From an uncultured Verrucomicrobiae bacterium (lineage in GTDB: Bacteria > Verrucomicrobiota > Verrucomicrobiia > Limisphaerales > Palsa-1400), in contig OY969763.1 in assembly GCA_963702845.1 (NCBI GenBank), positions 1,856,001 through 1,920,000 on the forward strand: a stretch of DNA of 64,000 nucleotides, read 5' to 3'. Shown in pieces: positions 14,483-51,295 of the stretch; position 1 is the stretch's first letter; every line of letters begins with the position of its first letter. The notes beneath the pieces were generated by a model that worked only from the letters and a program-made list of their open reading frames with translations, ran no database searches and had not been told where the DNA came from. Made by a program: the position numbers and the translations under genes.

Positions 14483-14486
14483 TAGA

Positions 14487-22060: not shown

Positions 22061-22240
22061 GTCCCTTCGGGACTTATTGGCCTGCGTCGTTTTTACCCGG
22101 CATTGAAATGCCGGGCTAGGTTCAGGTGCCCCTTCGGGGCAAAGACCGGCAATTTTGTGTTGAAGGCAGACGGAGGCTCTAACTGTTGGCGGGCTTGTTT
22201 CGCGGAGAAAATTAGAGCCTCCTCACGTCGGCTGCCACAA
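22061..22240. repeat. Cluster of REP-like hairpins abutting the recombinase 3' end
   Basis: GTCCC-TTC-GGGAC (22061), CCCGGCAT...ATGCCGGG (22096), GCCCC-TTC-GGGGC (22128), and an 11-bp IR GGAGGCTCTAA (22172) / TTAGAGCCTCC (22212). Confidence 0.65.
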
Positions 22241-23716
22241 CCGCTGTTGGTTTTTTGTCACTTCTATAGAAGTAGGTAGATACGTGAAGGTTATGTCAAT
22301 TTCTTTGTCGCCTAGGGTGATCTTTTCAACGAGCGATTCGGCGATCTTGCGCTTGTCGTCGGTCGGAAGCGATGGCCATCGAGAGTAGAGGGCAGTCGCT
22401 TCGTGTAAGAGTTCGTCAGTGGAAAGCTGGTTCACTTTGTTGAAATCGACTTCGGCCTGGAGCTTCAGGAGTCCGGCGTTGAGCTGGTTCAGGCGTTCTT
22501 CGGCCGGTTTATAGAATTGGGCAAAGCCTTGTGATGTGACGGAGCCGTCAAGATACAGGCGGTGCGTACGGGTCATGTCGTCGCGAACCTTCTGGATTTC
22601 GCGCTGATGGGCGGCAAGGAGCGCTTCTTTCTCAGCCAAGGCCTTGTTTGCGTTATCGAGGTGCATGGCGATGCGTTGCGGCTGCGCAAAGAACGCTTTC
22701 ATTTCGTGTTGAAAAATGTCGTCCAAATCGGTGATGGGAATTTTGTTGTGGCACTTTGCGCAGACGTATTTGGGCGAATTGGAGCGGACATACATTTTGT
22801 GACCGCATGAGCAATGGGCGAGGTTGCCAAAGATTTGGACGGGAAGCCTTCCTGGGCGTTTGTATCCTTTATTTTGTTCTTCAATGATCTGGTTTACCTG
22901 AGTCCAAAGGCTCTCCGGCACGATGGGTTCGCATTCGATCTTGCCCCATTCGCTCTCGGGCTTCACGGCAAAGCGCCAGTCGCCGTTCTTCTTGGTGCGG
23001 TTGAAGAAATATATACCTTTGGCGCTGCTTTCGACTAACGAGCGAATGACTTGGGTGTCACGCCACGGTTTGCCTTCGCGGGTGCGGTATCCAGCGGCGT
23101 TTAGAAGTTTGGCAACGGTGCCTTTGCGGCGATGCTCCAAATAGAGTTCGTATGCTTTGCGACGGATGGGCGCTTCTTCGGGATGCGGAATGAGCTTCTT
23201 GTCCTTGAACTGGTAGCCATATGGTGCGCGTCCATTGATGGACTTACCCATTTTGGCGCGGATTGAGACTGAGGCATTCACACGCTCCACTATTTCCTCA
23301 CGCTCCCATTGGGCGAATACGGCGAGCAGATGAAAGAACATGCGGCCTCCGGCGGTGCTGGTGTCCACGGATTCGGTTAACGATACGAGATCAGCATTGT
23401 GCTTCTTAAAGAAATCGCTGAAATCCTGCACCTCGCGGATATTGCGGGACAGACGGGCGAGCTTTGAAAAAACGAGCGCGTTAATGTGGCCGCGCTGAAC
23501 ATCCTTCATCATCCGCTGCGCTTCGGGGTGCTGCATCACGGCTTTTCCGCTCTGGCCGGCAAGGTCGTATGTCTCCTTCACCGTCCAGCCTCGGGCCTGG
23601 GCGTATGCTTTGGCGCGTTCAAGATGGTGCTGCGGGCTGTCGCCGTTTTTCTGATCTTCGGTGGAGACGCGAATCCAGATGCCGACTGATTTTGGCTCTT
23701 CAAAAGTAGGCTTCAT
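22223..23716 (-). CDS. Large serine recombinase (integrase)
   Basis: IRVST catalytic motif, KLARLSRN, APYGY recombinase domain, CSCG...YVC zinc ribbon, C-terminal coiled coil. Confidence 0.92.
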   Translation of the reverse strand: MKPTFEEPKSVGIWIRVSTEDQKNGDSPQHHLERAKAYAQARGWTVKETYDLAGQSGKAVMQHPEAQRMMKDVQRGHINALVFSKLARLSRNIREVQDFSDFFKKHNADLVSLTESVDTSTAGGRMFFHLLAVFAQWEREEIVERVNASVSIRAKMGKSINGRAPYGYQFKDKKLIPHPEEAPIRRKAYELYLEHRRKGTVAKLLNAAGYRTREGKPWRDTQVIRSLVESSAKGIYFFNRTKKNGDWRFAVKPESEWGKIECEPIVPESLWTQVNQIIEEQNKGYKRPGRLPVQIFGNLAHCSCGHKMYVRSNSPKYVCAKCHNKIPITDLDDIFQHEMKAFFAQPQRIAMHLDNANKALAEKEALLAAHQREIQKVRDDMTRTHRLYLDGSVTSQGFAQFYKPAEERLNQLNAGLLKLQAEVDFNKVNQLSTDELLHEATALYSRWPSLPTDDKRKIAESLVEKITLGDKEIDITFTYLPTSIEVTKNQQRLWQPT

Positions 23717-27946: not shown

Positions 27947-28381
27947 TTATTTTCTGGCGGCGATGCCGAGAATCGCGGCGGCAATAAGTCCAATCCAAGC
28001 TCCAGCGGCCAACCCCTGAAGGATGTTGTGTTCCTGGCTATACCCGTATGCCAAAATGACGAACGGAATCGCAGCGCATAGCTGACCGGCGATTTTGTAG
28101 TTCTTGCCCAAACCCGCGCCGCATGAGATTACCGCGAAGACAGGCATCGTCCAGAGCATGATCGCGTTGCCGCCTTCTTTGGTGAAATCGAATCCTGATG
28201 GGTGAGCCCAGAGGACATTGACCCAGGGAAGGAAAAATGAAACTCCGACAACCAATGAGAAAATGATGATAATGTGAGAACGCTGAAATGATACGTTCCG
28301 CGATGATGCCGTTGGTTCGATGATAGTTTCGGTTTTGTGAGGTGTGGTTTGTGCCGGTTCGAAGCTTTGCGTATCTGCCAT
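27947..28381 (-). CDS. Hypothetical membrane protein
   Basis: Four hydrophobic segments (FFLPW motif); co-oriented with the downstream genes. Confidence 0.65.
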   Translation of the reverse strand: MADTQSFEPAQTTPHKTETIIEPTASSRNVSFQRSHIIIIFSLVVGVSFFLPWVNVLWAHPSGFDFTKEGGNAIMLWTMPVFAVISCGAGLGKNYKIAGQLCAAIPFVILAYGYSQEHNILQGLAAGAWIGLIAAAILGIAARK

Positions 28382-28638
28382 ATAATGCCTGTCCACTTGG
28401 TTGATGCCATGCGCTGGCCGCGCGAGCCGTTGGGTGAATGGCCGCTACAATAGCTTTCGATGCTTCCACGTCAATCCTAATTAGTTGACACAATAAGCCT
28501 CTCTCGAAAAGAGAACCTGGCAACCACATTTTTTGCCGCTGCACTCGCCATGTTATGACTGATTCCATTCTTTCAAAGAGTGTATAAAAAAGCTTTTAGT
28601 TGGCTTGTGCGTCAGTAATTCTCCGCTTGTCACCGGAA

Positions 28639-28900
28639 TGAGCAAACGAGCTTTCATCAAAGATCCGCTGTGGGGCAATGTTGAATTTTGTTCATGGGAG
28701 ATATGTCTGACGGACCATTTCATCTTTAACCGTTTCGCAAATATTTATCCGAAACTCAAACGCATTCAAAGAATACTCTCGGTTTCTCCACGCAATTGGT
28801 GTCGTGCATATCACAACACAATTGTTTAGTAGTTCACTACGTAACGCTTACGGAGACGAGTTGAAGAAGTTGCACAAAGAGGAAAAGACCTTCAACTGGA
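28639..28900 (+). pseudogene. HD-domain phosphohydrolase N-terminal remnant
   Basis: MSKRAFIKDPLWGNVEF...FNR, then in a shifted frame NSNAFKEYSRFLHAIGVVHI. This resembles the 'DPxxG...SRFxHSxGV' start of HD dNTPase-like proteins; truncated. Confidence 0.55.
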
Positions 28901-29140
28901 GCTTTCAAAGAATGAGAATCGGTACTCCCGGAAGGTGAATAAGTGTGATAGCTGGCGGTGCCATATCAGAAGAGGAGAACAGGCCTAAAATTCCGAACCA
29001 AGTGTTATCCGCCTCGTAAAAGCCGTCGAGGGGCGTTTTTTTCATATCGTCCCATGAACAGACCACTGAAAGAAATAGGGCGAGCAATAGGAATCCAACC
29101 TCAGTGTTAATCAGCACGAAATGCATTAGGTTAAACCTAA

Positions 29141-29629
29141 TTAAACCAACGCAGAATTCACCGAACCCACAATCATTTGTTTCTGATTACCGTAGCAAGC
29201 GTCGCGTCGCATACGAATGTGCTCAATACCTGCGTCCAAAAACACATTTCCTTCCTCAGAGAAACCAAGTTTTTTATAGAAACCCACAACAAAAACTTGT
29301 GAATTGAGGTAAACTGTTTCCACTTTGATTTCAACAGCATAACTTAGAGCCTTTTCGATTAATCGTCGACCAACGCCTCTTCCGCGTCGTTCTTTGCTTA
29401 CAGCCACACGCCCGATTTTCATTGCCCCATCTCTTGTTACCATTCGAAGAGTACCAACAATGTCTGATTCTTCCCAAGCAACAAGATGGGGCGAAATCCA
29501 ATCGAAATGGTCGATCTCCTCATGCATCGGCACCCCTAGCTCGACAACGAACACCCTATAGCGTAAGGCCAAAACACCGTCCATTGAAGCGGTGCTGCCT
29601 TCTATCATTTCAATGCGTTCGACATTCAT
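29141..29629 (-). CDS. GNAT family N-acetyltransferase (ElaA/YjcF-like)
   Basis: LRYRVFVVE, KIGRVAV..RRGRGVG, LNSQ, FYKKLGF, DAGIEH. Confidence 0.88.
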   Translation of the reverse strand: MNVERIEMIEGSTASMDGVLALRYRVFVVELGVPMHEEIDHFDWISPHLVAWEESDIVGTLRMVTRDGAMKIGRVAVSKERRGRGVGRRLIEKALSYAVEIKVETVYLNSQVFVVGFYKKLGFSEEGNVFLDAGIEHIRMRRDACYGNQKQMIVGSVNSALV

Positions 29630-29632
29630 GAT

Positions 29633-30619
29633 TCATGACTTAAGTAGTAGGTCTGTCAGAATATCACGAGCCTCAATTATTGCACTTTTTTCAATATATT
29701 CATCCTGTGTATGTGCCTGCGCTATTGAGCCGGGCCCAAATAGCATCACTTTTTCGAACCTCTCAAAGTAGTGAGCCGCGTCTGATGAGAAATGAACAAC
29801 AACGGAGGTTGAAGAATGTTGCTCAGGCACAAATAATTCCACGGGCTCAATAGGTTTACTTCGAACCGTTAGGCACGATTCTCTAACCTTTTCCGAGATG
29901 ACACGGAAAACTTCGGTGGAATTTCCTTCAAATCGAGTGCAAAGTTGGGCCGATGCTAGGCTTGCTGTCATATTCGGGGCGGTACCGCCTTCAAGTCGTC
30001 CAACGTTCACTTGATAGGAATCTTGTAAATTTGGCTGTAAGCGACTCAAGTCACTGAGAAGTCGATGAATTGCTGAGTCCGCGGTATCGGAGGAACTATG
30101 GTGTTCGATACCTTGAGCTGTCAGCGTGCATTCCATGACGCCACGTGAACGACGAGCGAAGCGATTCTCCGTTGGCTCCCCATTGATAAGGAACTTGGAT
30201 CCGAGTTTCGAGTGACTGACAGCAAACTGGGCACCTATCCCGTCCACCTCCTCGCCTACAACAAAAAAGCACGCGTAATCACGCAACCCTTTGGTGATCG
30301 CTTGCTCCAATGCCCAAAGCTGTGTAACAATTTGTCCCTTCGCATCGCAAGCGCCCCTACCCGAAATTCTAGTCGCATTTTCGCTGACGTCTATTCTTCC
30401 AGGAACCGTATCGAAGTGTGTTGTAAGGGTATATTTGGGTGATCCTTTAACGAGAATGATGTTGTTGCGCCCCTTGGAAACTTCTTGGAACGCGAGATAG
30501 TCATGATCAAGATACGCATTTATGAATTGGTAGAGAAGTTCTCCAGCACTCGCCTCATCGGGGGAAACAGATTCGCATCTGACAAGGTCCACCAATAATT
30601 TAAAATAATCGAGACACAT
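29633..30619 (-). CDS. M20 family metallo-amidohydrolase (ArgE/DapE-like deacylase)
   Basis: THFDTV, GRGACDAKG, GEE, GEPT, GPGSIAQAH. Confidence 0.88.
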   Translation of the reverse strand: MCLDYFKLLVDLVRCESVSPDEASAGELLYQFINAYLDHDYLAFQEVSKGRNNIILVKGSPKYTLTTHFDTVPGRIDVSENATRISGRGACDAKGQIVTQLWALEQAITKGLRDYACFFVVGEEVDGIGAQFAVSHSKLGSKFLINGEPTENRFARRSRGVMECTLTAQGIEHHSSSDTADSAIHRLLSDLSRLQPNLQDSYQVNVGRLEGGTAPNMTASLASAQLCTRFEGNSTEVFRVISEKVRESCLTVRSKPIEPVELFVPEQHSSTSVVVHFSSDAAHYFERFEKVMLFGPGSIAQAHTQDEYIEKSAIIEARDILTDLLLKS

Positions 30620-30716
30620 AACATTTCACATACGAGTTACAGAACCATTGATTCAAATACTCTCAGCGATAGATATCATCCGGACAGTGTAACGAATGCC
30701 CCAATTCCAATCGCTC

Positions 30717-32378
30717 TTATGAAAGCTTCGTGATAAAGAACCCATTCAGAACCATATTCTTAACCGGTGAGTTCATAAAAGTTGTGAGAGCTTGCGCTGG
30801 TGTCTCCACAATAGGCTCATCCTTGCCGTTGAATGATGTGTTTAGAATAATAGAGGTTCCGGTTAATTCACCAACTCGCCCAACCAACGCGTAAACCTGA
30901 GGGTTTTGATAGCGGTTTACTGTCTGGACTCGTGCTGTATCGTCAACATGCACAATACCGGGAGCAACAGCTTTTGTGTGAACTAGGGTCTTCGGAGCAA
31001 AAAGCATAAACGGAGAAGATGCAGGTGAACCAAAAAACTTCGACGACTGTTCTTCCATGACAATTGGTGCCAACGGTCTGAACATCTCGCGAAATTTGAC
31101 ATGCTCATTTATGTAGTCTTTAGTGGTCGCCCGCCCTGGATTCGCCAAAATGCTGCGGTAGCCCAATGCACGTGGACCGATCTCAGCTCCCATTTGGAAC
31201 CACATTACAATATCGTGGCGCGCCAGAATCTGAGCGGTCCGTTCGATGAGCGCATCCTCGTTACATTCCTGAATCTCAAGCTTATGCTTATATCCTGCTA
31301 AAGCGCTCCATGTCTCCGAACGGGAGTATGTGCGTCCAAAATTTGTGCGATCTAGTCGACCGCTCCGTGGTAGTCCAAGAATTGTATGAGCTACGAAATA
31401 AGCAGCACCGAAAGAAATGCCGTTATCTCCTGGCGCAGGAAAAACAAAAATATCTTTGAAAGGCGAGTTTTCAAGGAGAAAACTATTCGCTACGCAATTC
31501 AACCCGACTCCGCCAGCAATACATAAACTGTCTGTCTTTGTTAAGCGATGCAGCAATTTCACGTAAAACAGAAGGACCTCATTCAGAATCAATTGGAAAG
31601 TAGCCGCAATATCCGCTCGCACTTCGAATTCCTGCCGATTTGGAACCTCTCGATTTAAGTCTTCCCACAGCCCCCCGTTGTTAATTTGCACTTCATCATC
31701 GAGGTAGCGAACATGTTTCATCACGAGGTTACGATACTTCGGCAGGCCATACGAACTCAGTCCCATAGTTTTTCCTTCGTCAAATAATCCAAAACCAGAA
31801 AGAAGAGTTCCAATTCTATAGAACACTCCAAGAGAGTTTTCCATGTCGTAGTAGTTTGAAACCTTGCCGCTCACCGTGCGGTGAACCTTCACCTGATTAT
31901 TTAGGCCGGAGCCAAGAAGGACAGTCTCATACGTACTCTCCGCAACGAGATCGCCGTAACCATCGGCAACCAATATTGCAGCGTTTTCAAACCCTGAAGA
32001 AAAGAACGTCGAAGTTGCGTGCGCAAGATGATGGTTGAGAAATATCGCACGTTCACGGAAAGGGACAGCCTTGTGCAGAGAATTCCCAGCCACGATCGCA
32101 ACATCTTCCAAAGTAATACCTGCGGCGTCTAAACAATACTGCATTGCAGGCGTGAGATTTTTTTCATTTTCTTGTGAATCCTTTGCTTCTAGATTCATTA
32201 GCGAAAATTGCGCGGGATTGTATCGTGACTCACCGTAAAGATGCAAAGCGTGCTTCGCACGAGACAATCGTTCTTCTTCAATAGCCACAACGATATCAGC
32301 GCCTTTGAACAGGCAAACAGACCGATCATGCAGCGAATCCGAAAATCCAATTATGAATTGCGAGGTGTGTTTGGACAT
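30717..32378 (-). CDS. Carbamoyltransferase (NodU/CmcH/TobZ family)
   Basis: HDRS, EEERLSR, HHLAHA, DGYG, GGVGLNC, GPRALG.RSIL, KFRE.FRP, HVDDTARVQTV, LNTSFN. Confidence 0.93.
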   Translation of the reverse strand: MSKHTSQFIIGFSDSLHDRSVCLFKGADIVVAIEEERLSRAKHALHLYGESRYNPAQFSLMNLEAKDSQENEKNLTPAMQYCLDAAGITLEDVAIVAGNSLHKAVPFRERAIFLNHHLAHATSTFFSSGFENAAILVADGYGDLVAESTYETVLLGSGLNNQVKVHRTVSGKVSNYYDMENSLGVFYRIGTLLSGFGLFDEGKTMGLSSYGLPKYRNLVMKHVRYLDDEVQINNGGLWEDLNREVPNRQEFEVRADIAATFQLILNEVLLFYVKLLHRLTKTDSLCIAGGVGLNCVANSFLLENSPFKDIFVFPAPGDNGISFGAAYFVAHTILGLPRSGRLDRTNFGRTYSRSETWSALAGYKHKLEIQECNEDALIERTAQILARHDIVMWFQMGAEIGPRALGYRSILANPGRATTKDYINEHVKFREMFRPLAPIVMEEQSSKFFGSPASSPFMLFAPKTLVHTKAVAPGIVHVDDTARVQTVNRYQNPQVYALVGRVGELTGTSIILNTSFNGKDEPIVETPAQALTTFMNSPVKNMVLNGFFITKLS

Positions 32379-32396
32379 AAAAAATGGGTTTAGCTG

Positions 32397-33299
32397 TCAG
32401 TCGCAGATAACGTTGGGTAAGATGGAATCCCATGCGTTTTTAGGAATCTCCCGGTTTATGACTTTGGAACGTTTTAGCCAGCGATCAGTTTTGTCGTAGC
32501 GAGGATTATAGCCGCTTCTGGCGTGAACCGAGTTGCGATTATCGATTAGCAGAAGATCCCCTTTCTCGAGGGTCACTGATAAGGATCCCTCATTAAAATG
32601 ATCTGTTAACGTCTTTAAAGCACCGGCAGCCTGAGTGTTATCACAGATGGTATACAAAGGATCGTATCTCAAGCTCGGTCGACTTGTTGTACCCGCGAAA
32701 ATTGCCACTCGTGATGATGGAGAGGATCGAATCGAAAAAGATTCATCTGGGTCTATACGAAATAACGGCTCTTGAAGGGTCCTAATTACATCCTTATCAA
32801 TTTGATTCGGTTCGAATCGGCTAACAAGTGTTTGGGCAGAATTATCGCCCTGTAAGCACAGCAGCGCAATAAAATCTGGATTATAATCAGTATGCGCGTC
32901 TTCCGTATGCCATTTTAGTTCGACACTTCCGGTGCCTAATTGAAGCTGTGCATGTTCTTTGACAGGTCTGAAATCGTGAACTATCGCCCCTCCCAATTGC
33001 CCATGGTAGCCCACTGGCGTCCCACAAGTCGAAGCCAATGAAAGCAGAATCAATTCGGAAATGGACGAGTTTTCGCGCAAATCAAACACATTATCTACTG
33101 GTAAACCTTTGACCAAATACATTCCAGTGGGACTGGATTGATCCCGAAACGCCGTCAGGCTTTTAATTAAGTCGTCCGGAAGGTTTAAGTTGAAATTTGT
33201 TAGCTCTTCCGAAGTTCGGGCCTTTGAGGATATGTAAGAGTATCGAGGTTTGGCGGCCGATGTCTTCCCAATCAGCTCAGAAAGGAACGGAGGAATCAT
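32397..33299 (-). CDS. Fe(II)/2-oxoglutarate dioxygenase, clavaminate-synthase/TauD family (start uncertain)
   Basis: WHTEDAH (HxE triad), LLIDN...HAR, DRWLKR. Confidence 0.85.
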   Translation of the reverse strand: MIPPFLSELIGKTSAAKPRYSYISSKARTSEELTNFNLNLPDDLIKSLTAFRDQSSPTGMYLVKGLPVDNVFDLRENSSISELILLSLASTCGTPVGYHGQLGGAIVHDFRPVKEHAQLQLGTGSVELKWHTEDAHTDYNPDFIALLCLQGDNSAQTLVSRFEPNQIDKDVIRTLQEPLFRIDPDESFSIRSSPSSRVAIFAGTTSRPSLRYDPLYTICDNTQAAGALKTLTDHFNEGSLSVTLEKGDLLLIDNRNSVHARSGYNPRYDKTDRWLKRSKVINREIPKNAWDSILPNVICD

Positions 33300-33744
33300 A
33301 TAGAAATCTGGTGATTCGTGAATCCGCAATTTTAGCGCCCTTTTACCAATCGCCACAAAGGGTATGGGCAACTCCGACTCCCGTCTTACCTTAATCATAG
33401 GCACCTCACTGGAGCGAAAAAAGAATACGCAAGTCGTTGAAAATTCAATGGGACGGGGGCACCCCAAATGCTGAAGAATTTGCAACTGGCATCCAACATG
33501 CGGCGAAGAGGTTCGAGGACTGAATTTAACACCTTCATGCTTGATATCTGTTATGTTCGGCCTCGTGGTTCGGGAGGCGGTGAGACGCCATTTCGACGAA
33601 GCCGACAATAATTTTCTGTGTCGGCTTTTTTATCTCATATTTTGACCCTGAGTCAACTATTTCTTTCTTGTTGCGTAATTTCTTTCTTTAGGAAATTTCT
33701 TGCGTCCGCCTTCCATTTACTCGACGTTGCCCCGGTTTCATTTA

Positions 33745-34821
33745 ATGAACGTACGTCTTTCAACCCTTTTGGATCGTGAATTTAAGCGCCGTGCTACAGA
33801 AACCGGTTCTCAGTCCTCATTCAAAACTTTGGATGAACAGGCTTTCTTTCTTGGCGTTACAGCAAGTTGGTTAAGCCGGTTGCGCAATGGCCGGGCTCGA
33901 CTTTCTATTGAGCTTTCAAAACAATTTGCTGACCGCTTGCGCGGTGACAGAGAAGAAAGAAAAGATTTGTTGCATGAGCTACAAATTGCTGCCGAAATTC
34001 TTGAAGACAACAGTCCGTTGCGGTTCAAACGAGTCCATGAAGTGGAGGTCGATTCCGGTGGAGCATTACACAGCGTTCAATCATTTTTTGAATGGCTTTC
34101 GACAAAGAAAAGCGCGTTTGTGGCCTGTGAATATCGTGACCATCCGCGAACACATGCAGATGGCCGGTATAGTCCTGCTGCTGGAGATGCAGGTCGGGCA
34201 ATTTTCGAATCCGATATTACTTTTGCTTTTTTTCAGCCTTTTGGCCCTCCCGAACAGTATGAAAATTTAAATGAAAATTTTTACCATTGTCGGGAAGTGC
34301 GGAATTATTTGTTTCGTCTGACAAATTACGCAAGGAATGCCTTTCACAGAATCCTAGCTGCCGCGTTGGACGCTGCGACCGACGCGGGCGTCAAAAAGGA
34401 CGAAGACCTACTAAAAATATGTGAGCGTATAATTTTGTATGAACGAAACAGTAGGATTTACCCGACGAATTTTCTTTCCGGCCTTCAGTCCCGAATTTTC
34501 TTTTTAAAAATCCCAGAGCCCAAACTTGGTGAAGCTCCAAAACAAGTATTTGAGTGGGTTGCCTGTGCCGGTGGACGCGACTTTATTTTTGAACGTGACG
34601 CAACGTCCATGCCCCCCGAAGTTGTCGGCGATCAATTTTTCCCAATTGTTTCATTCTGGGAAAAGCATAATCGATTACCTAGTGCACCTGATGAATTGAA
34701 AAATGCTGTGAAAAATTCTCAGCAGGAATTTGGCGCGAAATTACCAGATGAATCATGGGAAATTTATCGTCAACCACAACCTGCTCTCGCTGAATGGAAG
34801 CAGAGTAAAATCAAACATTAA
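33745..34821 (+). CDS. Protein with N-terminal XRE-like HTH and uncharacterised C-terminal domain (putative regulator)
   Basis: TLDEQAFFLGVTASWLSRLRNGRARLS; divergent from the enzyme operon; stop overlaps the next ATG (TAATG). Confidence 0.65.
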   Translation: MNVRLSTLLDREFKRRATETGSQSSFKTLDEQAFFLGVTASWLSRLRNGRARLSIELSKQFADRLRGDREERKDLLHELQIAAEILEDNSPLRFKRVHEVEVDSGGALHSVQSFFEWLSTKKSAFVACEYRDHPRTHADGRYSPAAGDAGRAIFESDITFAFFQPFGPPEQYENLNENFYHCREVRNYLFRLTNYARNAFHRILAAALDAATDAGVKKDEDLLKICERIILYERNSRIYPTNFLSGLQSRIFFLKIPEPKLGEAPKQVFEWVACAGGRDFIFERDATSMPPEVVGDQFFPIVSFWEKHNRLPSAPDELKNAVKNSQQEFGAKLPDESWEIYRQPQPALAEWKQSKIKH

Positions 34822-35906
34822 TGATTAACATTCCCGAAGAATTCAACCTGCCGGCGAGCCACGGTTTTACCATGGCTGGATGGAATTTCAGCTCGCAAGA
34901 AATTGCGTCCGCTATTAACGGCCAACGGATGCTCAATCCTGCTATGGAACTCGGAACAAACGAGTGCCCATGGAATTGCGATTTTTGTTTTACGGAAAGC
35001 TCGATAAATCCACAGGGGCGAAAACATCGGCTGACCAATGAACTTTCTCTGGAGAGACGTTTTCGGCTGATTGATGAGGCTGAAGCTCTAGGTACAAAAA
35101 GCATAAATTTTGCTGGTGCGGGAGAGCCAACCATTGAACCAAATTTCTGGATACTCTTGGAACGAATGCGAGAAAGAAGCATCACACCCATCATTTACAC
35201 GGAGGCTTCTCTAAAACTGCAAAACAAGGACTTTGTCTCACGCCTTTTTGATAGCGGCGCGACGGTCGTTGTGAAGATGAACTCTCTCTTCAATCCAGAA
35301 TACCAAGACAAGGTCTTGCGCGGGGTGCGCCCCAAGCCTGGAGTTCCAACACGCAGCTACAGTGAGGGCCGAAAAAAAGCTTTGGAATTGCTGTTGGAAG
35401 CTGGTTTTGCCAAATCTGTTCCCACTCGCCTAGCCTTCGACACAATTATCTGCCGTGAAAATGTTTCAGAAATAGAACAGATTCATCGCTACGCCCGCGC
35501 TCAAAATATTTTCGTAATCTTCGTTAATTATCTTCCATCAGGCCGAACATCTGACGGTCACACATCCGCGATTACTTGGGACGAGCAACATACTATTTTC
35601 AAGCGGTTGGCCGAAATTGACAGGAATGAATTCAAGATTGATCATGCGAGCCATTTTCCATATTCGGGTGGCGTTCCATGCACAATCCGCGGCTTGGGTT
35701 TATTCGTGAAAATCCAAGGACAAGTTTTTGATTGTCCCGGAGAAACCATCGCGCTTGGAAATCTTAAAGAGAAAAGTTTGAAGGAGATTTGGACGAAGGC
35801 TCGGGAGATTGCTCGTAATTTCAACGGAGAATGTTTACCTCGAAAATTATTTTGGCAACGAATGACGACGTCAAAATTACCGGAGGAAACTTTAGCCCGT
35901 GCCTGA
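34821..35906 (+). CDS. Radical SAM enzyme with C-terminal SPASM/twitch-like cysteines
   Basis: CPWNCDFC, GAGEP, and C-terminal C...GQVFDCPG...GNL...W...C. Confidence 0.88.
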   Translation: MINIPEEFNLPASHGFTMAGWNFSSQEIASAINGQRMLNPAMELGTNECPWNCDFCFTESSINPQGRKHRLTNELSLERRFRLIDEAEALGTKSINFAGAGEPTIEPNFWILLERMRERSITPIIYTEASLKLQNKDFVSRLFDSGATVVVKMNSLFNPEYQDKVLRGVRPKPGVPTRSYSEGRKKALELLLEAGFAKSVPTRLAFDTIICRENVSEIEQIHRYARAQNIFVIFVNYLPSGRTSDGHTSAITWDEQHTIFKRLAEIDRNEFKIDHASHFPYSGGVPCTIRGLGLFVKIQGQVFDCPGETIALGNLKEKSLKEIWTKAREIARNFNGECLPRKLFWQRMTTSKLPEETLARA

Positions 35907-36230
35907 GGTTCATTTCATCTTGCACATTACCAACTAAAGCCCGAGCCCAGCGCCGAGGTCGTTGCGCAATTGACCGACACGCCTCCATTTGTCCGCCTCG
36001 GTTGCAGCGTATTCCACATGAAAATTGATTTCATCTGTTTGGCCCTTTACATCCCGCCCTTCCGCCGCAAATAACAACTGCCGAGTTATGATGCTTCAAA
36101 ATTGAAACGTGTTTGGCTATTTTGATTTGAAATTAGATATATGTTAGAATGGAAATTTCCACGAACCTAAGACTTAAGATTTACCGTTGAAGAGAGTGAA
36201 ACAACTACAGAGTATTTATAATTAAAAGCT

Positions 36231-38009
36231 ATGCCAATAATTGAAGGTCTGAGCGAAGCGCAGAATAATCCTCTCAAGCGGATAATCACATCCTCTGTCT
36301 GTGAGGTAATTCAATCTTGGGGGACTCCCATTCGCGCCGAAGATCTCTATCTTTTCATCGGAGAGCCTCCGTCCGAAGACCTAGGGGATTACACATTGTC
36401 TTGTTACCCGCTTGCCAAACAGCTGCGGAAATCCCCCGACATAATCGCGAAGCAGCTTGGTGAATGTTTATCCTCTTGTGCGAACTTTTCGTGCAAAGTG
36501 GTAGGACCCTATGTGAACTTTTCATTCCCAATTGGAGTTCTCGGTGAGCAGGTACTGACAAAGATATTAAATCGAACACTTGATCAACAATCAGTATTCG
36601 TAAACCCGCCGCGGGTTATGATTGAGTATTCACAGCCAAATACTCATAAGGAACTTCATGTGGGGCATATGCGGAATATGGCTCTTGGCTCGGCGCTAGT
36701 AAATTTATTTACAAACTGCGGAATCCCAACTCTTTCTTCAACATTTCCGGGTGATGTAGGGGCGCACGTAGCAAAGTGTCTTTGGTATTTGCAATATGTG
36801 AACAAGGAAGCCACCCCAGATGTTAAGCGCGGAGAGTGGTTAGGAAGCATATACTCAAAAGCAGTCAAAGCGTTGGAACTTATTGAGGAAGATTTGGAAA
36901 AGAAGCGTGCAGCAGATGAGCAAATCAGTGAGATACTTAGATGCATTGAGCAAAAACAAGGGGAAGCGTATGCGTTATGGCGAGAAACACGCAAATGGTC
37001 TATCGACCTGCTAGAGGAAATATACCATTGGGCAGGCGTCCGGTTTGATGTGTGGTATTGGGAATCTGAAGTTGATTCAGCCTCCGTTAGTTACGTCAAA
37101 CAGCTCCTGGCGGATGGCCAACTTATGCTATCCAACGGTGCCGTCGGCATGGACTTATCAGATGACGGACTGGGGTTCTGTTTGCTATTAAAATCAGATG
37201 GCAACGGTCTATATGCAACAAAGGATGTAGAACTTGCCCGCCGTAAGTTCGAGGACCACAAGATCGAACGGAGTATTTATATTGTTGATAGTGGGCAGTC
37301 TTTTCATTTGCAGCAGATATTCGCTGTTCTAAGACGCATCGGATTTCCGAATGCGGCGCAATGTGTTCATCTGAAATACGAGGTCGTGGAGTTGCCAGAG
37401 GGAAAGATGAGCTCCAGGCGCGGAAACATTGTACCAATTGCCGAACTGATAACACGAATGCAAGAAATTGTAATCAAGGATCACCTAGATAAGCATCGTG
37501 GCATTTGGTCTGATGTGGAGATCGAAGCGACGGCGAAACTGGTTGCGCGAGGAGCGATCAAATTCGGTATGTTGCGAGTAACGAATGAGCGGAAGATTGT
37601 GTTCGATATGGGTGAATGGCTTCGACTGGATGGTGATTCTGGTCCCTATTTGCAATATGCTTGCGTCAGATTAAACAGTCTTATTCGTAAAGCAAAAGAG
37701 GCCAATGGAAATTCCGATGCTGTATCGTGGCCTCTTTTGGACGTAGCCATAGAAAGAGAGATTGTAGTAATGATGAGCCGTTTTAATGATATCGTCGCCA
37801 CTGCATGTAAAGATTGTCAGCCTTCAATTATTTGCTCATACCTCATACGTCTCGCTCGTAAGTTCGCTAATTACTACGCTACTACTCAGATAATAATTCC
37901 CACTGATCCAGCGTTGACCCGAGCTAGAGTAGAACTTATGAGCGCTGTCAGATGTATTCTGGTAAGAGGCCTCGAACTACTTGGAATCGATGTCCCTGAA
38001 AGAATGTGA
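36231..38009 (+). CDS. argS: Arginine--tRNA ligase located on the island (probably an extra copy)
   Basis: EYSQPNTHKELHVGHMRN (HIGH), KSDG..LYATKD, KMSSRRG, GPYLQYA..R, LGI..PERM C-terminus; full length, no frameshift. Confidence 0.94.
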   Translation: MPIIEGLSEAQNNPLKRIITSSVCEVIQSWGTPIRAEDLYLFIGEPPSEDLGDYTLSCYPLAKQLRKSPDIIAKQLGECLSSCANFSCKVVGPYVNFSFPIGVLGEQVLTKILNRTLDQQSVFVNPPRVMIEYSQPNTHKELHVGHMRNMALGSALVNLFTNCGIPTLSSTFPGDVGAHVAKCLWYLQYVNKEATPDVKRGEWLGSIYSKAVKALELIEEDLEKKRAADEQISEILRCIEQKQGEAYALWRETRKWSIDLLEEIYHWAGVRFDVWYWESEVDSASVSYVKQLLADGQLMLSNGAVGMDLSDDGLGFCLLLKSDGNGLYATKDVELARRKFEDHKIERSIYIVDSGQSFHLQQIFAVLRRIGFPNAAQCVHLKYEVVELPEGKMSSRRGNIVPIAELITRMQEIVIKDHLDKHRGIWSDVEIEATAKLVARGAIKFGMLRVTNERKIVFDMGEWLRLDGDSGPYLQYACVRLNSLIRKAKEANGNSDAVSWPLLDVAIEREIVVMMSRFNDIVATACKDCQPSIICSYLIRLARKFANYYATTQIIIPTDPALTRARVELMSAVRCILVRGLELLGIDVPERM

Positions 38010-38615
38010 TGACGTTTATTGCTTGATAACTCTGGCGGACTACATTTACGTATGTTTAGTTTCTTAAACGTATTTGACACTGTCTTCGCCATCGGCCAAG
38101 GTGCGGCACATGACTGGCATTTGGCTGAATAGCAGTATTGTGCCTCCTATCGGAGCGACTTGTTTTGGAAATAGTCGCAGGCTGGCTGGTTAGGTTTTTT
38201 CATTTGGAGGTTCAATAAGTTTGGTCCCAAGGGATTTGGAGCCGTGTTTACCGTCCTATTCGGTGAGGCTGCTATCAAATTCATGGAGACTGAAAAGACA
38301 GTTCTGTGGTTCTATCCCATCGGGTTTGGCAAACCGTTCTGAGCAGCCCGCTTTCTCCCTGACCACTGGAGACCAGAGAAATTTTCCGAGTTTGTTTAGG
38401 TGTTTAGGCGGTGCAAGTGTTTTTAGCAAAACGCGATTAAATGACCTCGTCCCTCGGCGGCGCTTCGCAGGGAACACGACTTTAAATATTGATGACATCA
38501 GCTCGCGTCAGCCGTCCGTTCATCCCTGCCCTTTAACATCCGCTGCAGAAGGGCGAGATCCGACGGGGCTTTACTGGGCAAGAAAAAACCTCTCTCGGAA
38601 ACGAGAGAGGTGTGT

Positions 38616-46767: not shown

Positions 46768-47346
46768 CTAATTACACAATCGGCCTGCGGATAAGATGGT
46801 TCTGATTACTTTTGATTCAGTGTCAGTCGTCCCGTCTAACACCAAGACTTGTGGGATTGTCTCCGCAAGTTGATGGAGATGTCGGTCGACGGTTGATCTG
46901 AAACCTTCATCAGTGTCGCGCGGCTTTTCGGGATCGATTGTAACCGGTGCTGTGGCTTTCGAGTATATTAGACAGCCGTAGGTCAAACAGTGGTGGGCAA
47001 CTAACTCGCGGAGGTATGCTTGGCGCCGCGTATCGAGCTTTTCATTCCGGAATTCAAACGCCGCCAGCTGATAGCCAAGCGCGTCGACCGGAGGCCGGTC
47101 GACAAGCAGAATATCTTGCGTTTTGTGTTCGAGTTCCAAGCTAATTCCTCGTGCCATCATCCACAATGTGCTCTCAAATGTATGATTCGCTAGGATTGGA
47201 AATCCGCGATCCCGGGCCTCCACAGCCAAACCACCGAGAGTTTTTACTGACAATCCTCGGTTTACGAGTTCCGCCTCAAGCTTTTTCAAAAAGCTCGACT
47301 TGCCCGTAGAATGGGTGCCGAAAATTCCGATTTTAAATTGAGCCAT
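46768..47346 (-). CDS. P-loop nucleotide-kinase-like protein (AAA_28/NadR-like)
   Basis: KIGIFGTHSTGKS Walker A; LLVDR..VDALGY; start overlaps the radical SAM 3' end. Confidence 0.78.
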   Translation of the reverse strand: MAQFKIGIFGTHSTGKSSFLKKLEAELVNRGLSVKTLGGLAVEARDRGFPILANHTFESTLWMMARGISLELEHKTQDILLVDRPPVDALGYQLAAFEFRNEKLDTRRQAYLRELVAHHCLTYGCLIYSKATAPVTIDPEKPRDTDEGFRSTVDRHLHQLAETIPQVLVLDGTTDTESKVIRTILSAGRLCN

Positions 47347-48475
47347 TATCGTTCCATCCAATGTCAGCACGTCCGTGTCGCCCAATTTTATGTGGGTGTT
47401 TTCGATCGTGCACCTGAAAACGAAGATTATGCTGCAAAAAATACCGATATTGTTCGTCCAAATCATCGAATTCGATGGCCCGGTCAGTTATCGAGAAAGA
47501 TTTATCGGTTCTGCCGATTGCCTTTAATAAGAGTGAGACGGCGGAGTCGTCGGGTCGTCGATGGCGATGCGAGCACAAATCTACTTGGCCTCTTGGGCAA
47601 ATATCGCAAAGCTCGGTGATTCCGAAATGCCCGTTATAATCTGCGTCGCCGTGTGCAAAACAAACGCCGCACGAAGTCTTTCTGAAAAGTTTGTGCCTTT
47701 CGCCGGCGGTAGTAAATGTGGCGATGATTTGGCGTTCAAGATCTTCAGGCAAGATTTTTCGACGGGCTGTGGCCCCGTACGGTTCCGGCAAACCAGCCTG
47801 TTGATAGAATGCTTTTATCTCGTCTCTATAGAATAGCCCCGTGAAGACCGTCGCGTGCGAATGTCGGCTTAAATCAACCGCCTTCGTGATGTCCTCATCT
47901 CGGTCGTTAAGTCCAGGGACGATTGGCCGCCAATATTGCACGACTCGAAACCGCTCGGCCTGCGAGTAAGCTAACTTCAGCGAGTGCTCGGCAATCGAAC
48001 TGTCGATAGGTTCGATGCGACCGTCCTGAATTCCAGAATGTGTGATCAATAACGTAATCCGCAAGGAGCGCAGAGCATTCAACCTCATGCAATCTTCTGC
48101 GAGCACTTTGTACCGGCTGATCACGAGAACGTGGTTCTTCAGTTGCATTGCATCCATCGCATTTAAGACAGCAAACAGGTGCGGTTTAACCGTTGGTAGA
48201 AATGGATCGGTCGCACGGTTGAAAATCTGGATCGGCGTGATGTCTCTACGGAAAAATTTGTGCCCGATTAGCAGGCCAACCGCCTCGTTATCGGACATGA
48301 GGAGCGCGGGTTCCTTCATCTCGAAATTATTGAACAGATGCCGAACGCAATAGGCACAATCAAGTGGACATCCGATGACGTGATTTAAGCTTAACCCTGA
48401 CTTCCGGTACTCAATCGGGTCCTGTAGGCTGGAATTCAAGCCCACCCATTGAGATTGCGAAATGTGTCTCAACAT
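47333..48475 (-). CDS. Radical SAM protein (spore-photoproduct-lyase-like branch)
   Basis: GCPLDCAYC, TDPF, RPIVPGLND; additional C-terminal Cys (CGVC, CDIC...C). Confidence 0.83.
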   Translation of the reverse strand: MLRHISQSQWVGLNSSLQDPIEYRKSGLSLNHVIGCPLDCAYCVRHLFNNFEMKEPALLMSDNEAVGLLIGHKFFRRDITPIQIFNRATDPFLPTVKPHLFAVLNAMDAMQLKNHVLVISRYKVLAEDCMRLNALRSLRITLLITHSGIQDGRIEPIDSSIAEHSLKLAYSQAERFRVVQYWRPIVPGLNDRDEDITKAVDLSRHSHATVFTGLFYRDEIKAFYQQAGLPEPYGATARRKILPEDLERQIIATFTTAGERHKLFRKTSCGVCFAHGDADYNGHFGITELCDICPRGQVDLCSHRHRRPDDSAVSLLLKAIGRTDKSFSITDRAIEFDDLDEQYRYFLQHNLRFQVHDRKHPHKIGRHGRADIGWNDNGSI

Positions 48476-48887
48476 AAAAAATTACCGTAATTCGGTTTGC
48501 GGCCTGGTCAATCATTCTTCGGTTTCAATACGGAATAGTGTTGAGTTAGTACCGCTGTCTATAAAACATGGGCACTGCTGCGTTTCAACGCAACGAGCAC
48601 GCCTTAGTGCTGAAACACTGGTTCTGCAACGAAGCTGAATCGAAACGCCTTAAGTTAGCAAATGCTTTTTCTTTTTAGCCGCTCTGTTTCTCGCTCGCGT
48701 GTTACGGCTTCGACCGGCCTGCAATAGGCCTTCATGTCTTCGATTTCGCCGTGATCGATCGGGTCAGGGAGAGAAATGTTCAGCTGTATGAGAAGGCCGT
48801 ATTCAATAAGTTTTCTAACCGCGTCGAGTCAGGACCCCGGCACTGAGGGTACCCCCATCACCGGCGGTAGTTGCCAATTCTCACCGG

Positions 48888-49175
48888 TTACGTCGGTTGC
48901 AAGTTATACCACGTGCTGCCGTTAGATTCCGTGACGAGGACAGAATAGTCTTTCACGACGGCAGCTGCCCCCTGCTTAGCTGCGTCGAGCACCTGTTGGC
49001 TAGTCCAATTAGCGTCTAGAAAATATTCGGCCGGGGGAAGCTTGTACGTTTTCGGCTCCGACGACCTTATCGTCCGGGAAAAGCCTCGTTTTTCCATTTC
49101 CGCATGGAGTTTCGTATATTCGGCAGCGTCATGCCGGATTCCATGCAACTCGACTCGTGTTATGAACCGTGCCAT
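48888..49175 (-). CDS. GhoS/DUF2622-like small protein
   Basis: MARFITRVELH...Y..LHAEMEKRGFSRTI...YKLPPAEY...VLVT. Confidence 0.65.
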   Translation of the reverse strand: MARFITRVELHGIRHDAAEYTKLHAEMEKRGFSRTIRSSEPKTYKLPPAEYFLDANWTSQQVLDAAKQGAAAVVKDYSVLVTESNGSTWYNLQPT

Positions 49176-49185
49176 ACGTACGTGA

Positions 49186-49575
49186 TTAATCCGAAATGAT
49201 GTACAGCCCTAGAACGATCGCCGCCAAAGCAAAAGCCGCGGACAACTGAGGGCTCGTCGCCTTACCAGTCTGGGAGTAGTTCGCGTAATGCTCACAATTG
49301 AATTTCCACAGATCGTATTTCGTTCCCAAGAGAGATAGAGCGCGTTGGACGACCTGCGTTCGAGCGAAACTGTCTGCTGGTGCGGGAATTTCGATCGAAA
49401 CTGCGGAACCGCCCAAGAATTTTTCGAAGGTCGAGAGGATCACGACGCCCGTTTTCTTGTCGTTATGAGCCACGCAGCGCCCGTCTAACCGCGGGCCCAA
49501 ATAGATGCCGACGTGGCGATATAAAAACCTCTGCACTTGAATCTTGTCTCCCGCCGCTAGTGTGTGCGATTGCAT
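49186..49575 (-). CDS. LRAT-like (permuted NlpC/P60) protein with C-terminal TM helix
   Basis: YRHVGIYLG, VAH, Y.LWKFNCEHYA catalytic motif. Confidence 0.78.
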   Translation of the reverse strand: MQSHTLAAGDKIQVQRFLYRHVGIYLGPRLDGRCVAHNDKKTGVVILSTFEKFLGGSAVSIEIPAPADSFARTQVVQRALSLLGTKYDLWKFNCEHYANYSQTGKATSPQLSAAFALAAIVLGLYIISD

Positions 49576-49746
49576 GGCACCCCATATGTTGTACAGGGCG
49601 GGCTCAAGTGTCAAGCGAATGTCTAAATCCCTTCCGCGGTTGCAAAATTTACGCGCGACTAGCGGTGTTGAATTTGGCCAGCAGACGGTTCGGTGAATCA
49701 AGATTTGGCCTATTTTCTGAAAACATTTTGTCATGATTCCGCGGTA

Positions 49747-50361
49747 TCAGCGCAACGGGACCACTGTCCAGCCAAATGGTTGGCGATACGCTTCCGCCAT
49801 CACTTGGCCCATTATCACAGAATAGTGCGCGACGGTGTAATCTTCATCGTCATTATGTTCGCGGACCAGACGGGCCGCCCATTCGGCGTCAGGAACAACA
49901 ATCTTTGCATCCACGGAACTGAGTTCCAATCGTTCGCAAGGTATTCTCCATTCGCGTTCCCAAGTGAAGTCCGAGAACTCGAAACCTTCGCGTATCTCAT
50001 ATAGCATGTGCCGCCAGCGATGGCTTTTTGGCAGTGCGTCATACTCGGCGTTTGTCTGGTATATGACTGGACGGCCTCCTTGAGCGAACAGCCATTTCTT
50101 GGCCACCATGATACCGAATGGGGAATAACGGGAATAGTAGTCTTCATTGAGCAAGCCCTCGCCGAGACTGGAAAGGGGCGCCTCGGAGAAGCATACGCAC
50201 GGGAAACTTCCCTTAATGAGTCGGCCACTGCCCAAAAGGGTCTTTTCGTAGATAATCTTTTGAAGCCGCTGATATGCGGCTTCGTCTGAAACATCACTCG
50301 TAAAATGAATCAGATTCGGAGAAATATCCAACCTGCCCATAGGGCAAATAATCGTATCCAT
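49747..50361 (-). CDS. AbiGi-like / ART-fold-like hypothetical protein
   Basis: LIHFT, VCFSEAPL, YSPFGI..K..LFAQGGRPVIY, WEREWR. Confidence 0.55.
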   Translation of the reverse strand: MDTIICPMGRLDISPNLIHFTSDVSDEAAYQRLQKIIYEKTLLGSGRLIKGSFPCVCFSEAPLSSLGEGLLNEDYYSRYSPFGIMVAKKWLFAQGGRPVIYQTNAEYDALPKSHRWRHMLYEIREGFEFSDFTWEREWRIPCERLELSSVDAKIVVPDAEWAARLVREHNDDEDYTVAHYSVIMGQVMAEAYRQPFGWTVVPLR

Positions 50362-51259: not shown

Positions 51260-51295
51260 AGACCGGCCTGGGGCAGAATAACCCAGGCTTTTTTA

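Follow-up and report, generated by a model that had tools for sequence, protein, structure and literature searches.

The stretch analyzed here (the window) is 64,000 nucleotides of the genome of an uncultured Verrucomicrobiae bacterium (contig OY969763.1; genome G000), and it contains a mobile element whose cargo includes a second gene for arginyl-tRNA synthetase (ArgRS) beside a small group of enzymes predicted to modify amino acids. Seven genes in two divergent arms lie within a low-GC cargo block at 28001..38200. The left-hand operon encodes a clavaminate-synthase-like (CAS-like) dioxygenase, a carbamoyltransferase, an M20 deacylase and a GNAT acetyltransferase, and the other arm encodes a helix-turn-helix (HTH) protein, a radical S-adenosylmethionine (SAM) enzyme and the ArgRS (Table 1). 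An earlier note on this DNA, made from the letters alone, had read these genes as an AT-rich unit within a mobile element that makes an arginine- or citrulline-like compound and carries its own resistant ArgRS. All seven genes were found where that note had placed them, with the domains that it had named. GC content across 28001-38000 was 0.434-0.471 per 1-kb interval, as against 0.538-0.561 in the left flank and 0.510-0.558 in the right flank. In five relatives of the same genus or family, DNA matches to the first 19.2 kb of the window (transketolase, clpB, ribBA and alaS) were 64-97% identical, with 70-86% identity over long matches. From ~19.3 kb on, these relatives matched only scattered element genes (recombinase, TrwB-like ATPases and RadC), and 28.0-39.4 kb had no DNA match in any of the five. 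The block is surrounded by a serine recombinase, two TrwB/VirD4-like ATPases, a primase, Replic_Relax, RadC, methylases and defence-like genes. Proteins of the DUF1559/N-terminal-methylation type are also numerous, a trait typical of planctomycetes. The seven-gene block is horizontally acquired cargo of a mobile element, as the note had described it. The note had also seen no transporter, nonribosomal peptide synthetase (NRPS) or polyketide synthase (PKS), and Pfam and NCBIfam detected none of these domains among the block proteins.

Table 1. Features of the cargo block and its mobile element, in window coordinates
Feature	Position	Strand	Families and remarks
Large serine recombinase of the mobile element	22223..23716	-	Resolvase and Recombinase Pfam domains; related copies on other contigs of relatives
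ElaA-like GNAT N-acetyltransferase, 162 aa	29141..29629	-	Acetyltransf_10/1/7; last gene of the left-hand operon
M20 metallo-deacylase, ArgE/LysK group, 328 aa	29633..30619	-	Peptidase_M20 and M20_dimer Pfam domains
NodU/CmcH/TobZ-type carbamoyltransferase, 553 aa	30717..32378	-	Carbam_trans_N and Carbam_trans_C
Fe(II)/2-oxoglutarate amino acid hydroxylase (putative), clavaminate-synthase-like, 333 aa	32397..33398	-	TauD Pfam domain; first gene of the left-hand operon
Divergent intergenic region	33399..33744		Between the two arms; 47-aa open reading frame and terminator-like hairpin
Xre-type HTH protein with a ~250-aa C-terminal domain	33700..34821	+	Real start probably ATG 33745
Radical SAM/SPASM enzyme, 361 aa	34821..35906	+	Radical_SAM 3.5e-12; SPASM 24.8 bits (cut-off 21.5); start overlaps the stop of the HTH gene
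Second, foreign arginyl-tRNA synthetase, 592 aa, apparently intact	36231..38009	+	TIGR00456; three ArgRS Pfam domains

The island ArgRS scored 343 bits against TIGR00456, above the 261.65-bit cut-off for an arginine--tRNA ligase, and its best solved relative was yeast ArgRS (1bs2). A separate housekeeping argS was present in the same genome (G000:C1:4755891-4757597; 534 bits), and the two proteins were 26% identical. Among 5.8 billion database proteins, the nearest relative of the island copy (P0002) was 54% identical. None of 30 relatives, ranging from the same genus to the same order, carried the island type; these genomes had only housekeeping-type matches, with 25-30% identity. In a maximum-likelihood tree of 51 ArgRS sequences, the host housekeeping copy grouped with the copies of five relatives in a third clade. 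The island copy fell in a different deep clade, of the yeast/Bdellovibrio/Saprospiraceae type, together with sequences labelled Bdellovibrio, Oligoflexia and Saprospiraceae. Within this first clade, the island copy and P0002 were sisters on long branches (Shimodaira-Hasegawa-like approximate likelihood ratio test [SH-aLRT], 100). Thus the host has a housekeeping argS of its own and the island ArgRS is not of the vertically inherited host type, two points on which the earlier note had made its proposal depend.

The association of this ArgRS with the modifying enzymes was found to be conserved elsewhere. All GTDB species genomes were scanned with an alignment of the dioxygenase and the best 80 loci were kept; one of these (L003, in genome G001) carried five of the seven window families, 75 carried the dioxygenase alone, and 4 carried the dioxygenase with one weak second match. 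A scan of metagenome contigs with an alignment of the carbamoyltransferase yielded 24 loci, one of which (L086) carried the same five families as L003. A third locus, L129 (genome G1043), was found among 309 other genomes of the family of L003; it had been predicted beforehand. The NCBI accessions of its dioxygenase and ArgRS are three apart, as they are in L003. Since each collection scan relied on short peptide patterns, the set may occur at more loci than were detected. In all three loci the genes run in the order dioxygenase, carbamoyltransferase, M20 deacylase and ArgRS on one strand, with argS last. The carbamoyltransferase was the best-conserved gene of the set (55% identity to the window protein in L003, L086 and L129), followed by the M20 deacylase (40-41%), the dioxygenase (38-40%), the GNAT (34% in L003 and L086) and the ArgRS (28-30%). 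Between L003 and L086 themselves, the ArgRS proteins were 43% identical, below every other cluster gene (55-85%).

With the window counted, argS was present in all four loci that carried the dioxygenase-carbamoyltransferase-M20 set, the ElaA-like GNAT in three, carAB in two and a radical SAM neighbour in two, although the two radical SAM proteins were only 21% identical (E 0.002); the HTH protein occurred in the window only. The seven-gene unit proposed in the earlier note was therefore sustained for the four-gene core and, in three of the four loci, for the GNAT, but not for the HTH and radical SAM genes. In both L003 and L086, a carA-carB-GNAT operon is convergent into the end of argS. The gene set is rare, occurring in 1 of 401 sampled genomes of the order of L003 and in 2 of 310 genomes of its family. 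Two weaker carbamoyltransferase matches in the order of G001 (G603 and G806) were accompanied by none of the other cluster genes. P0002, the closest relative of the island ArgRS, is found on contigs of up to 5589 nt, and P0406, which belongs to the P0125 dioxygenase cluster, lies on a 5590-nt contig. A contig of this length just fits the four core genes, and P0002 and P0406 may represent a fifth instance, with a window-type ArgRS.

The hosts of L003 and L129 have tiny genomes (G001, 1.1 Mb; G1043, 1.3 Mb) that resemble those of the candidate phyla radiation (CPR), and L086 is a lone metagenome contig. All sampled genomes of the GTDB order of G001 were 0.5-1.5 Mb. G001 looks like a CPR bacterium of the Saccharimonadia type, and the nearest named relatives of both of its ArgRS copies were mostly Saccharimonadales or Saccharibacteria. 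Besides the cluster copy, G001 carries a second full-length argS. G1043 has three full-length argS matches on three contigs, i.e., two besides the cluster copy, which may reflect a mixed bin or real copies; given that the assembly could be mixed, it was counted as having at least one other argS copy. Of 40 relatives of G001, 34 had one argS, 4 had none at the threshold, and 2 had two matches, one of which was a contig-edge fragment. The unpublished genomes G712 and G842, each with a single copy, are counted here (32 of 38 without them).

No gene of the ornithine or aspartate carbamoyltransferase (OTCase/ATCase) family was found in G001, and neither argG nor argH was found above family cut-offs in G001 or G1043. 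Since G001 lacks the OTCase/ATCase family, its carAB genes have no ordinary consumer, and with argG and argH missing from both genomes as well, the linked carAB is most simply explained as a dedicated supply of carbamoyl phosphate. The cluster-linked carB of L086 (6432-9630) reads as two overlapping open reading frames of 488 and 600 aa, because the gene is split or because the contig contains a frameshift. The carB of G000 is present as two separate halves at distant loci (G000:C1:4973666-4975162 and 4066039-4067763).

The cluster-linked ArgRS proteins did not form one lineage in the tree. The copies of L003 and L129 formed their own subclade with P0281 and P0282 (SH-aLRT 100) within a second clade, in which most of the named sequences are labelled Saccharimonadales or Saccharibacteria, and the copy of L086 was a long branch at the base of this clade, where its placement is uncertain. 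In this tree the linked ArgRS genes belong to two or three distinct lineages, and ArgRS has probably been recruited into the same enzyme set at least twice independently. Such repeated recruitment would be difficult to account for if the activity of the ArgRS were of no importance to the cluster.

Residue roles in ArgRS were assigned from the available text of an Escherichia coli ArgRS structure paper (PMC3956977) together with an alignment to the yeast enzyme. The island ArgRS has the motif residues E132, N137, H143-G145-H146 (HVGH), Y328, D332, Q356 and M393-S-S-R396. The residues that bind the guanidinium group (Glu/Asp, Tyr and Asp) and the backbone (Asn, His and Gln) are conserved in every cluster ArgRS copy, as are the HxGH and MSSR motifs. 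Because the arginine-binding and catalytic residues are kept, the cluster copies should charge arginine, and they are predicted not to have been re-specified for a modified amino acid. Lineage-specific deviations were present at otherwise conserved sites. At positions that are at least 90% conserved, the island copy and P0002 deviate by R355G, which adjoins the carboxylate-binding Gln356, and by D154S/C; in the four clade-B cluster ArgRS copies, the near-universal PYLQY motif is altered by Tyr→Ala/Val and Gln→Leu. These deviations are candidates for a basis of insensitivity. The non-cluster ArgRS of G001 (L083; G001:C1:101324-103000) has Ile at the otherwise strictly conserved position of the Gln that contacts the carboxylate of arginine (E. 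coli Q341); the same Gln→Ile occurs in 12 of 119 sequences of that clade, as either an alignment shift or a real active-site variant.

The open reading frame of the dioxygenase runs 32397-33608 (-), but its true start is probably 33398, and the database form (P0121) has 333 aa. It matched TauD with 54 bits (cut-off, 27 bits) and fell short of the NCBIfam equivalogs for GntD (176 versus 345 bits), VioC (145 versus 418.6 bits) and CS1 (118 versus 450 bits); it is accordingly assigned to the wider CAS-like superfamily only. The closest solved structures were the non-heme iron hydroxylase AsnO (6daw), CmnC, OrfP and VioC. H164, E166, H292 and R306 were invariant, and R310 nearly so, in 10 aligned sequences. 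The protein also keeps T190 and D246; the Asp equivalent to D246 in AsnO presumably binds the amide. Residues were mapped to CmnC by structure-relative alignment, and according to the accessible part of the CmnC study, H164/E166/H292 correspond to the iron triad, T190 and R306 to the 2-oxoglutarate ligands, and R310 to the Arg that binds the substrate carboxylate, while the Asp equivalent to D246 binds the guanidino group in CmnC and VioC (PMC9513391). The window dioxygenase thus has the iron triad, the 2-oxoglutarate Arg and Thr, the carboxylate Arg and the side-chain Asp of the VioC/CmnC/OrfP/GntD/AsnO group. It shares a Q-L-G motif with OrfP, and it has Leu where VioC and CmnC have a second guanidino-binding Asp. 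It differs from the group in being only ~30% identical to its members and in that its gene is not linked to a pyridoxal phosphate-dependent cyclase or an NRPS. Asn, Arg, enduracididine and Lys hydroxylases were about equally distant (~30% identity each), and no substrate was called by homology. With ~30% identity to all hydroxylase types and scores below all equivalog cut-offs, homology does not fix the substrate.

The carbamoyltransferase matched Carbam_trans_C (4.5e-57; 193 bits, cut-off 27) and Carbam_trans_N (1.2e-36; 127 bits, cut-off 24) and scored below the NodU equivalog (148, cut-off 1000). Its closest solved structures were carbamoyltransferase 7xb6, followed by the O-carbamoyltransferases GdmN, NovN and TobZ. 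Like TobZ, CmcH, NodU, GdmN and NovN, it has a two-domain architecture, Kae1-like and YrdC-like. The known members of this group decorate sugars, macrolactams and β-lactams, whereas the likely acceptor here is a hydroxy amino acid.

The M20 deacylase scored above the Pfam cut-offs for both the catalytic domain (62.7 bits) and the dimerization domain (34.4 bits). Its best NCBIfam matches were N-acetyl-lysine and acetylornithine deacetylases, with no equivalog cut-off reached, and its best solved relative was acetylcitrulline deacetylase (2f7v), whose substrate is an Nα-acetyl amino acid bearing a carbamoyl group on its side chain. H68, D70, D92, E123, E124, E148 and H303 were invariant across the three orthologues aligned; these His, Asp and Glu positions would be the metal ligands and the catalytic Glu of the family. 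The GNAT matched Acetyltransf_10 (1.5e-19) and scored 63 bits against PRK10314, below the cut-off of that model. Its solved relatives were SACOL1063, PA0115 and ElaA, and with an R-G-R-G-V-G motif present it is predicted to be of the classical acetyl-CoA type.

Collectively, these data suggest a compact pathway, which would use no NRPS, PKS or ribosomal peptide, to a modified basic amino acid, coupled with immunity of the producer. The hydroxylase would hydroxylate arginine, as the simplest substrate, or a close relative of it, either free or Nα-acylated. The carbamoyltransferase would then O-carbamoylate the new hydroxyl group at the expense of ATP and carbamoyl phosphate, the latter coming from the carAB genes that are sited in two of the loci. 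The M20 deacylase would remove an Nα-acyl protecting group, and the GNAT would either install this group or re-acetylate the free toxin as an immunity function. The product would inhibit ArgRS or be mischarged by it, and the extra ArgRS would keep the translation of the producer running. The HTH protein would serve as a regulator, and the radical SAM enzyme as an optional tailoring enzyme or an unrelated one, in both cases outside the conserved pathway. This scheme is supported by the proximity of the M20 deacylase to acetylcitrulline deacetylase, by that of the carbamoyltransferase to O-carbamoyltransferases, and by the retention in the dioxygenase of the carboxylate Arg and side-chain Asp of arginine hydroxylases. 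Further, the hallmarks of a self-resistance aminoacyl-tRNA synthetase (aaRS) were found here, namely an extra aaRS in the cluster, a housekeeping copy elsewhere (in G000, G001 and G1043), and retention of the association in homologous clusters. We hold with about even confidence that the set makes a basic amino acid, hydroxylated and carbamoylated, whose target is ArgRS, and that the extra ArgRS protects the producer, probably together with the GNAT. The identity of the product, its toxic action and the resistance of the second ArgRS are predictions from sequence. The interpretation given in the earlier note was thus partly supported.

Several observations weigh against this pathway. The best solved relative of the dioxygenase, AsnO, is an asparagine hydroxylase, and arginine is proposed as the substrate from the association of the genes. 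The ElaA-like GNAT was not found in L129, whose only GNAT-domain gene encodes a 405-aa protein (Pfam GNAT 30.1 bits, cut-off 20.7) with almost no similarity to the window GNAT, and no exporter was found in any of the four loci. No substitution at conserved sites was common to the cluster ArgRS lineages; the copies look canonical, and neither a convergent substitution nor a change in the active site marks them as resistant. The two ArgRS proteins of G001, that of the cluster and the other one, belong to one clade (58.6% identity), so recruitment of a naturally insensitive foreign enzyme is not a general rule. Two of the four hosts are tiny and have no argG or argH above cut-offs, and a scavenging role is conceivable there. 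Finally, a spare ArgRS occurs with GNAT and M20 genes but with neither the dioxygenase nor the carbamoyltransferase in G446, a tiny genome of the order of L003. There, the locus L125 (G446:C5:181000-200000) encodes at 8532-14729 (-) a second, foreign-type ArgRS of 641 aa (TIGR00456, 396 bits) that is 25% identical to the L003 copy. The operon order is GNAT, M20 (ArgE/DapE family), GNAT, M20, a 179-aa protein without an assigned function, ArgRS and a 153-aa protein likewise without one. This operon could be an immunity-only set or one that handles arginine analogues.

The last two observations bear on an explanation that we consider unlikely, in which the genes form an island for resistance, detoxification or scavenging directed at arginine or foreign arginine analogues, with a discriminating or high-affinity ArgRS and with enzymes that modify the compound by hydroxylation, carbamoylation or acetylation, or deacylate it. 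The two tiny hosts that lack argG and argH (the OTCase family was checked in G001 only) must import arginine, the G446 operon suggests that an ArgRS/GNAT/M20 trio may work without biosynthesis, and in the tiarin systems discussed below the GNAT is purely a detoxifier, according to the available text of the preprint that describes them (bioRxiv 10.64898/2025.12.02.691738). However, the M20 and GNAT proteins encoded by the G446 operon are not orthologues of the cluster proteins: its M20 proteins were 28-29% identical to the cluster M20 over about half the length, and no match to the cluster GNAT was found. Carbamoyl phosphate synthesis by carAB followed by TobZ-type carbamoylation would cost three ATP per molecule, which is typical of biosynthesis, and carAB is linked to the set in two of the four loci. 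Moreover, the host of the window has an ordinary argS and a carB (in two halves), and yet the set is present as mobile cargo.

A second alternative, which we rate as rather improbable, is that the ArgRS is itself a biosynthetic enzyme that supplies Arg-tRNA, or charges an intermediate, for a tRNA-dependent step, in the manner of the seryl-tRNA synthetase (SerRS) of the valanimycin pathway. In three of four loci argS stands at the end of the operon, which fits a pathway enzyme as well as an immunity gene, and the retention of all arginine- and ATP-site residues in the cluster copies is as expected. The recruitment of host-compatible lineages would suit a need to charge host tRNA, and tRNA-dependent biosynthesis is the other known reason for the presence of an aaRS in a cluster, as far as the available preprint text states (bioRxiv 10.64898/2025.12.02.691738). 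By Pfam, however, no transferase of the Fem, L/F-transferase or ATE type, no cyclodipeptide synthase and no LanB-like enzyme was found in any locus, and the GNAT matches classical acetyl-CoA families and has their glycine motif. No tRNA genes accompany the cluster argS genes, and the housekeeping ArgRS could already supply Arg-tRNA.

It is very improbable that the set constitutes an unconventional route to citrulline and arginine, in which the TobZ-type enzyme would replace OTCase, the M20 protein would be an acetylcitrulline deacetylase, and argS would be a mere neighbour from arginine metabolism. The gene content does echo the N-acetylated arginine pathway (acetyltransferase, carbamoyl-phosphate synthase, carbamoyltransferase, ArgE-like deacylase and ArgRS), but the hydroxylase would have no role in such a route, the solved relatives of the carbamoyltransferase include O-carbamoyltransferases, and the window set lies on an island that its relatives lack. 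A bypass of arginine biosynthesis was rejected on the grounds that citrulline could not become arginine in G001 and G1043, where argG and argH were missing above cut-offs; G001 lacks the OTCase family as well. The remaining view, that the ArgRS and the enzymes are chance neighbours among unrelated island cargo, could appeal to the location of the window argS on the other arm, with two unrelated genes between it and the enzyme operon, but it is refuted for practical purposes by the conserved synteny: three further loci carry these four families in unchanged order at 28-55% identity to the window, and argS is an extra copy in each genome that could be checked.

Returning to an ArgRS-directed amino acid with a spare ArgRS as immunity, the closest precedents are clusters that duplicate the target of their product. 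Self-resistance by a cluster aaRS is known for mupirocin (IleRS), albomycin (SerRS) and agrocin 84 (LeuRS), and the resistant copy in such clusters often derives from a distant lineage. Indolmycin, with TrpRS, is a further example in the available text of a December 2025 preprint (bioRxiv 10.64898/2025.12.02.691738). The window set resembles these four systems in that a duplicated target lies inside or beside the cluster; it differs in that the target would be ArgRS and in that three enzymes are involved, with no PKS, NRPS or nucleoside chemistry. The earlier note had stated that no characterized natural product targets ArgRS. This statement is out of date, since the same preprint, in its available part, describes inhibition of ArgRS by trifolitoxin, a member of the tiarin family, and the presence in tiarin clusters of both spare aaRS genes and a GNAT immunity gene whose product acetylates the α-amine of the warhead (bioRxiv 10.64898/2025.12.02.691738). 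As far as that text describes them, tiarin clusters share with the window set a spare aaRS of the targeted specificity beside the biosynthetic genes, a housekeeping copy elsewhere, and a small GNAT (TfxH), which is often divergent. Tiarins, however, are ribosomal peptides, made by YcaO and dehydrogenase-type enzymes acting on a precursor and taken up in Trojan-horse fashion, whereas the enzymes of the window set are predicted to act on free amino acids. No YcaO or dehydrogenase-type maturase family was found with Pfam and NCBIfam in the block or in L003, L086 or L129, and no recognizable precursor was found.

The N-acetylated arginine pathway offers a different likeness, that of chemical logic: protection by acetylation, carbamoylation and deprotection, with its ArgE-family deacylase (2f7v) the nearest solved relative of the M20 protein. 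It differs in using another carbamoyltransferase superfamily; the window set adds a hydroxylase, and the hosts checked have no argG or argH. The valanimycin pathway, which has a spare aaRS in a small-molecule cluster (the SerRS VlmL), includes a recognized seryl-tRNA-using transferase, whereas no tRNA-dependent family was found in the window set. The dedicated SerRS of the valanimycin cluster is also noted in the available preprint text (bioRxiv 10.64898/2025.12.02.691738). Mangotoxin was considered as a known relative and set aside as unrelated; the accessible descriptions of its cluster give a haem-oxygenase-like oxidase, ATP-grasp ligases and a deiminase. In the open-access literature, no report of this gene combination was found beyond the tiarin preprint and a general review.

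A broader proposal, which we put forward tentatively and regard as somewhat more doubtful than the pathway itself, is that these loci represent a new class of tiny clusters for an arginine-derived, hydroxylated and carbamoylated ArgRS poison. The cassette would move between ultra-small epibiotic CPR bacteria and mobile elements such as that of the window, the immunity ArgRS would be swapped to suit the tRNA of each new host, and the immunity half (ArgRS, GNAT and M20) would be all that remains in genomes like G446. If true, the product would be the first small-molecule, non-peptide natural ArgRS inhibitor. Inhibitors of aaRS enzymes whose own cluster encodes the resistant target have already led to antibiotics of predictable mode of action. 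Natural targeting of ArgRS was demonstrated very recently, and for a ribosomal peptide alone; a three-enzyme amino acid pathway with a spare ArgRS would add a new chemotype. Rule-based finders of biosynthetic gene clusters could miss such a cluster, and with four or five genes the system is small and directly testable. That such a cluster occurs in CPR genomes of 1 Mb would be relevant to the ways in which these epibionts control their hosts or compete with them, and the apparent repeated replacement of ArgRS would provide a clean natural example of immunity-gene swapping.

The two remaining genes of the right-hand arm, encoding the HTH protein and the radical SAM enzyme, appear not to be part of the conserved set, but they share the low GC content of the block and so probably arrived with it. 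The window HTH protein matched HTH_31 with 21.7 bits, below the 27-bit cut-off, and HTH_3 was detected in 16 of 40 members of its family. This family is rare (142 representatives), its clusters in the ESM Atlas are labelled only "HTH protein", and it was absent from L003, L086 and L129, from 400 other genomes of the phylum, and from viral contigs. In an AlphaFold model (predicted local distance difference test [pLDDT] score, 86.7) the C-terminal domain was confidently modelled, but the fold matches were weak (TrmBL2 and PLD-like; best E 2.7e-3), and this domain matched no Pfam family. The protein gave no match in PADLOC. Our guess is that the protein is a ligand-sensing regulator.

The radical SAM enzyme showed generic similarity to viperin, MoaA and maturase models, reached no NCBIfam equivalog, and belongs to an unnamed ESM Atlas family; a gap of 325 nt separates its gene from that of the ArgRS. 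A radical SAM gene also lies divergently upstream of the dioxygenase in L129 (14103-15161, +), where the protein has Fer4_12, as against SPASM in the window enzyme. The presence of a radical SAM gene beside both clusters is either a coincidence or a functionally analogous tailoring step.

Upstream of the HTH and radical SAM genes, between the two arms, lies a 47-aa open reading frame (33468-33611, +), and directly after it comes a terminator-like hairpin (33598-33628) with a U-run. The hairpin has a folding energy of -13.9 kcal/mol (z -3.4), and none of 200 shuffled sequences folded as well. No Rfam match was found in this region. The 47-aa open reading frame could encode a leader, a small protein or a precursor peptide. 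Within the block, no riboswitches, T-boxes or tRNAs were found, promoter and terminator scans gave sites no more frequent than in shuffled sequence, and no flanking repeats were found at the block ends. At the low-GC boundary, 745 nt downstream of the GNAT gene, lies a 149-aa open reading frame (27947-28396, -) with approximately four hydrophobic helices and no family match, which is the sole candidate near the block for a membrane protein of export or immunity.

The far end of the island (window positions 46768-64000) carries defence-like cargo. It includes an AbiGi-like protein (49747-50361); a C5 DNA methylase (53245-54177) whose gene overlaps that of an HATPase protein with a Shedu SduA_C-like domain (54174-56309); and a TCAD9-domain protein (60777-62318) whose gene overlaps that of a ThiF-family E1-like enzyme (62315-63664).

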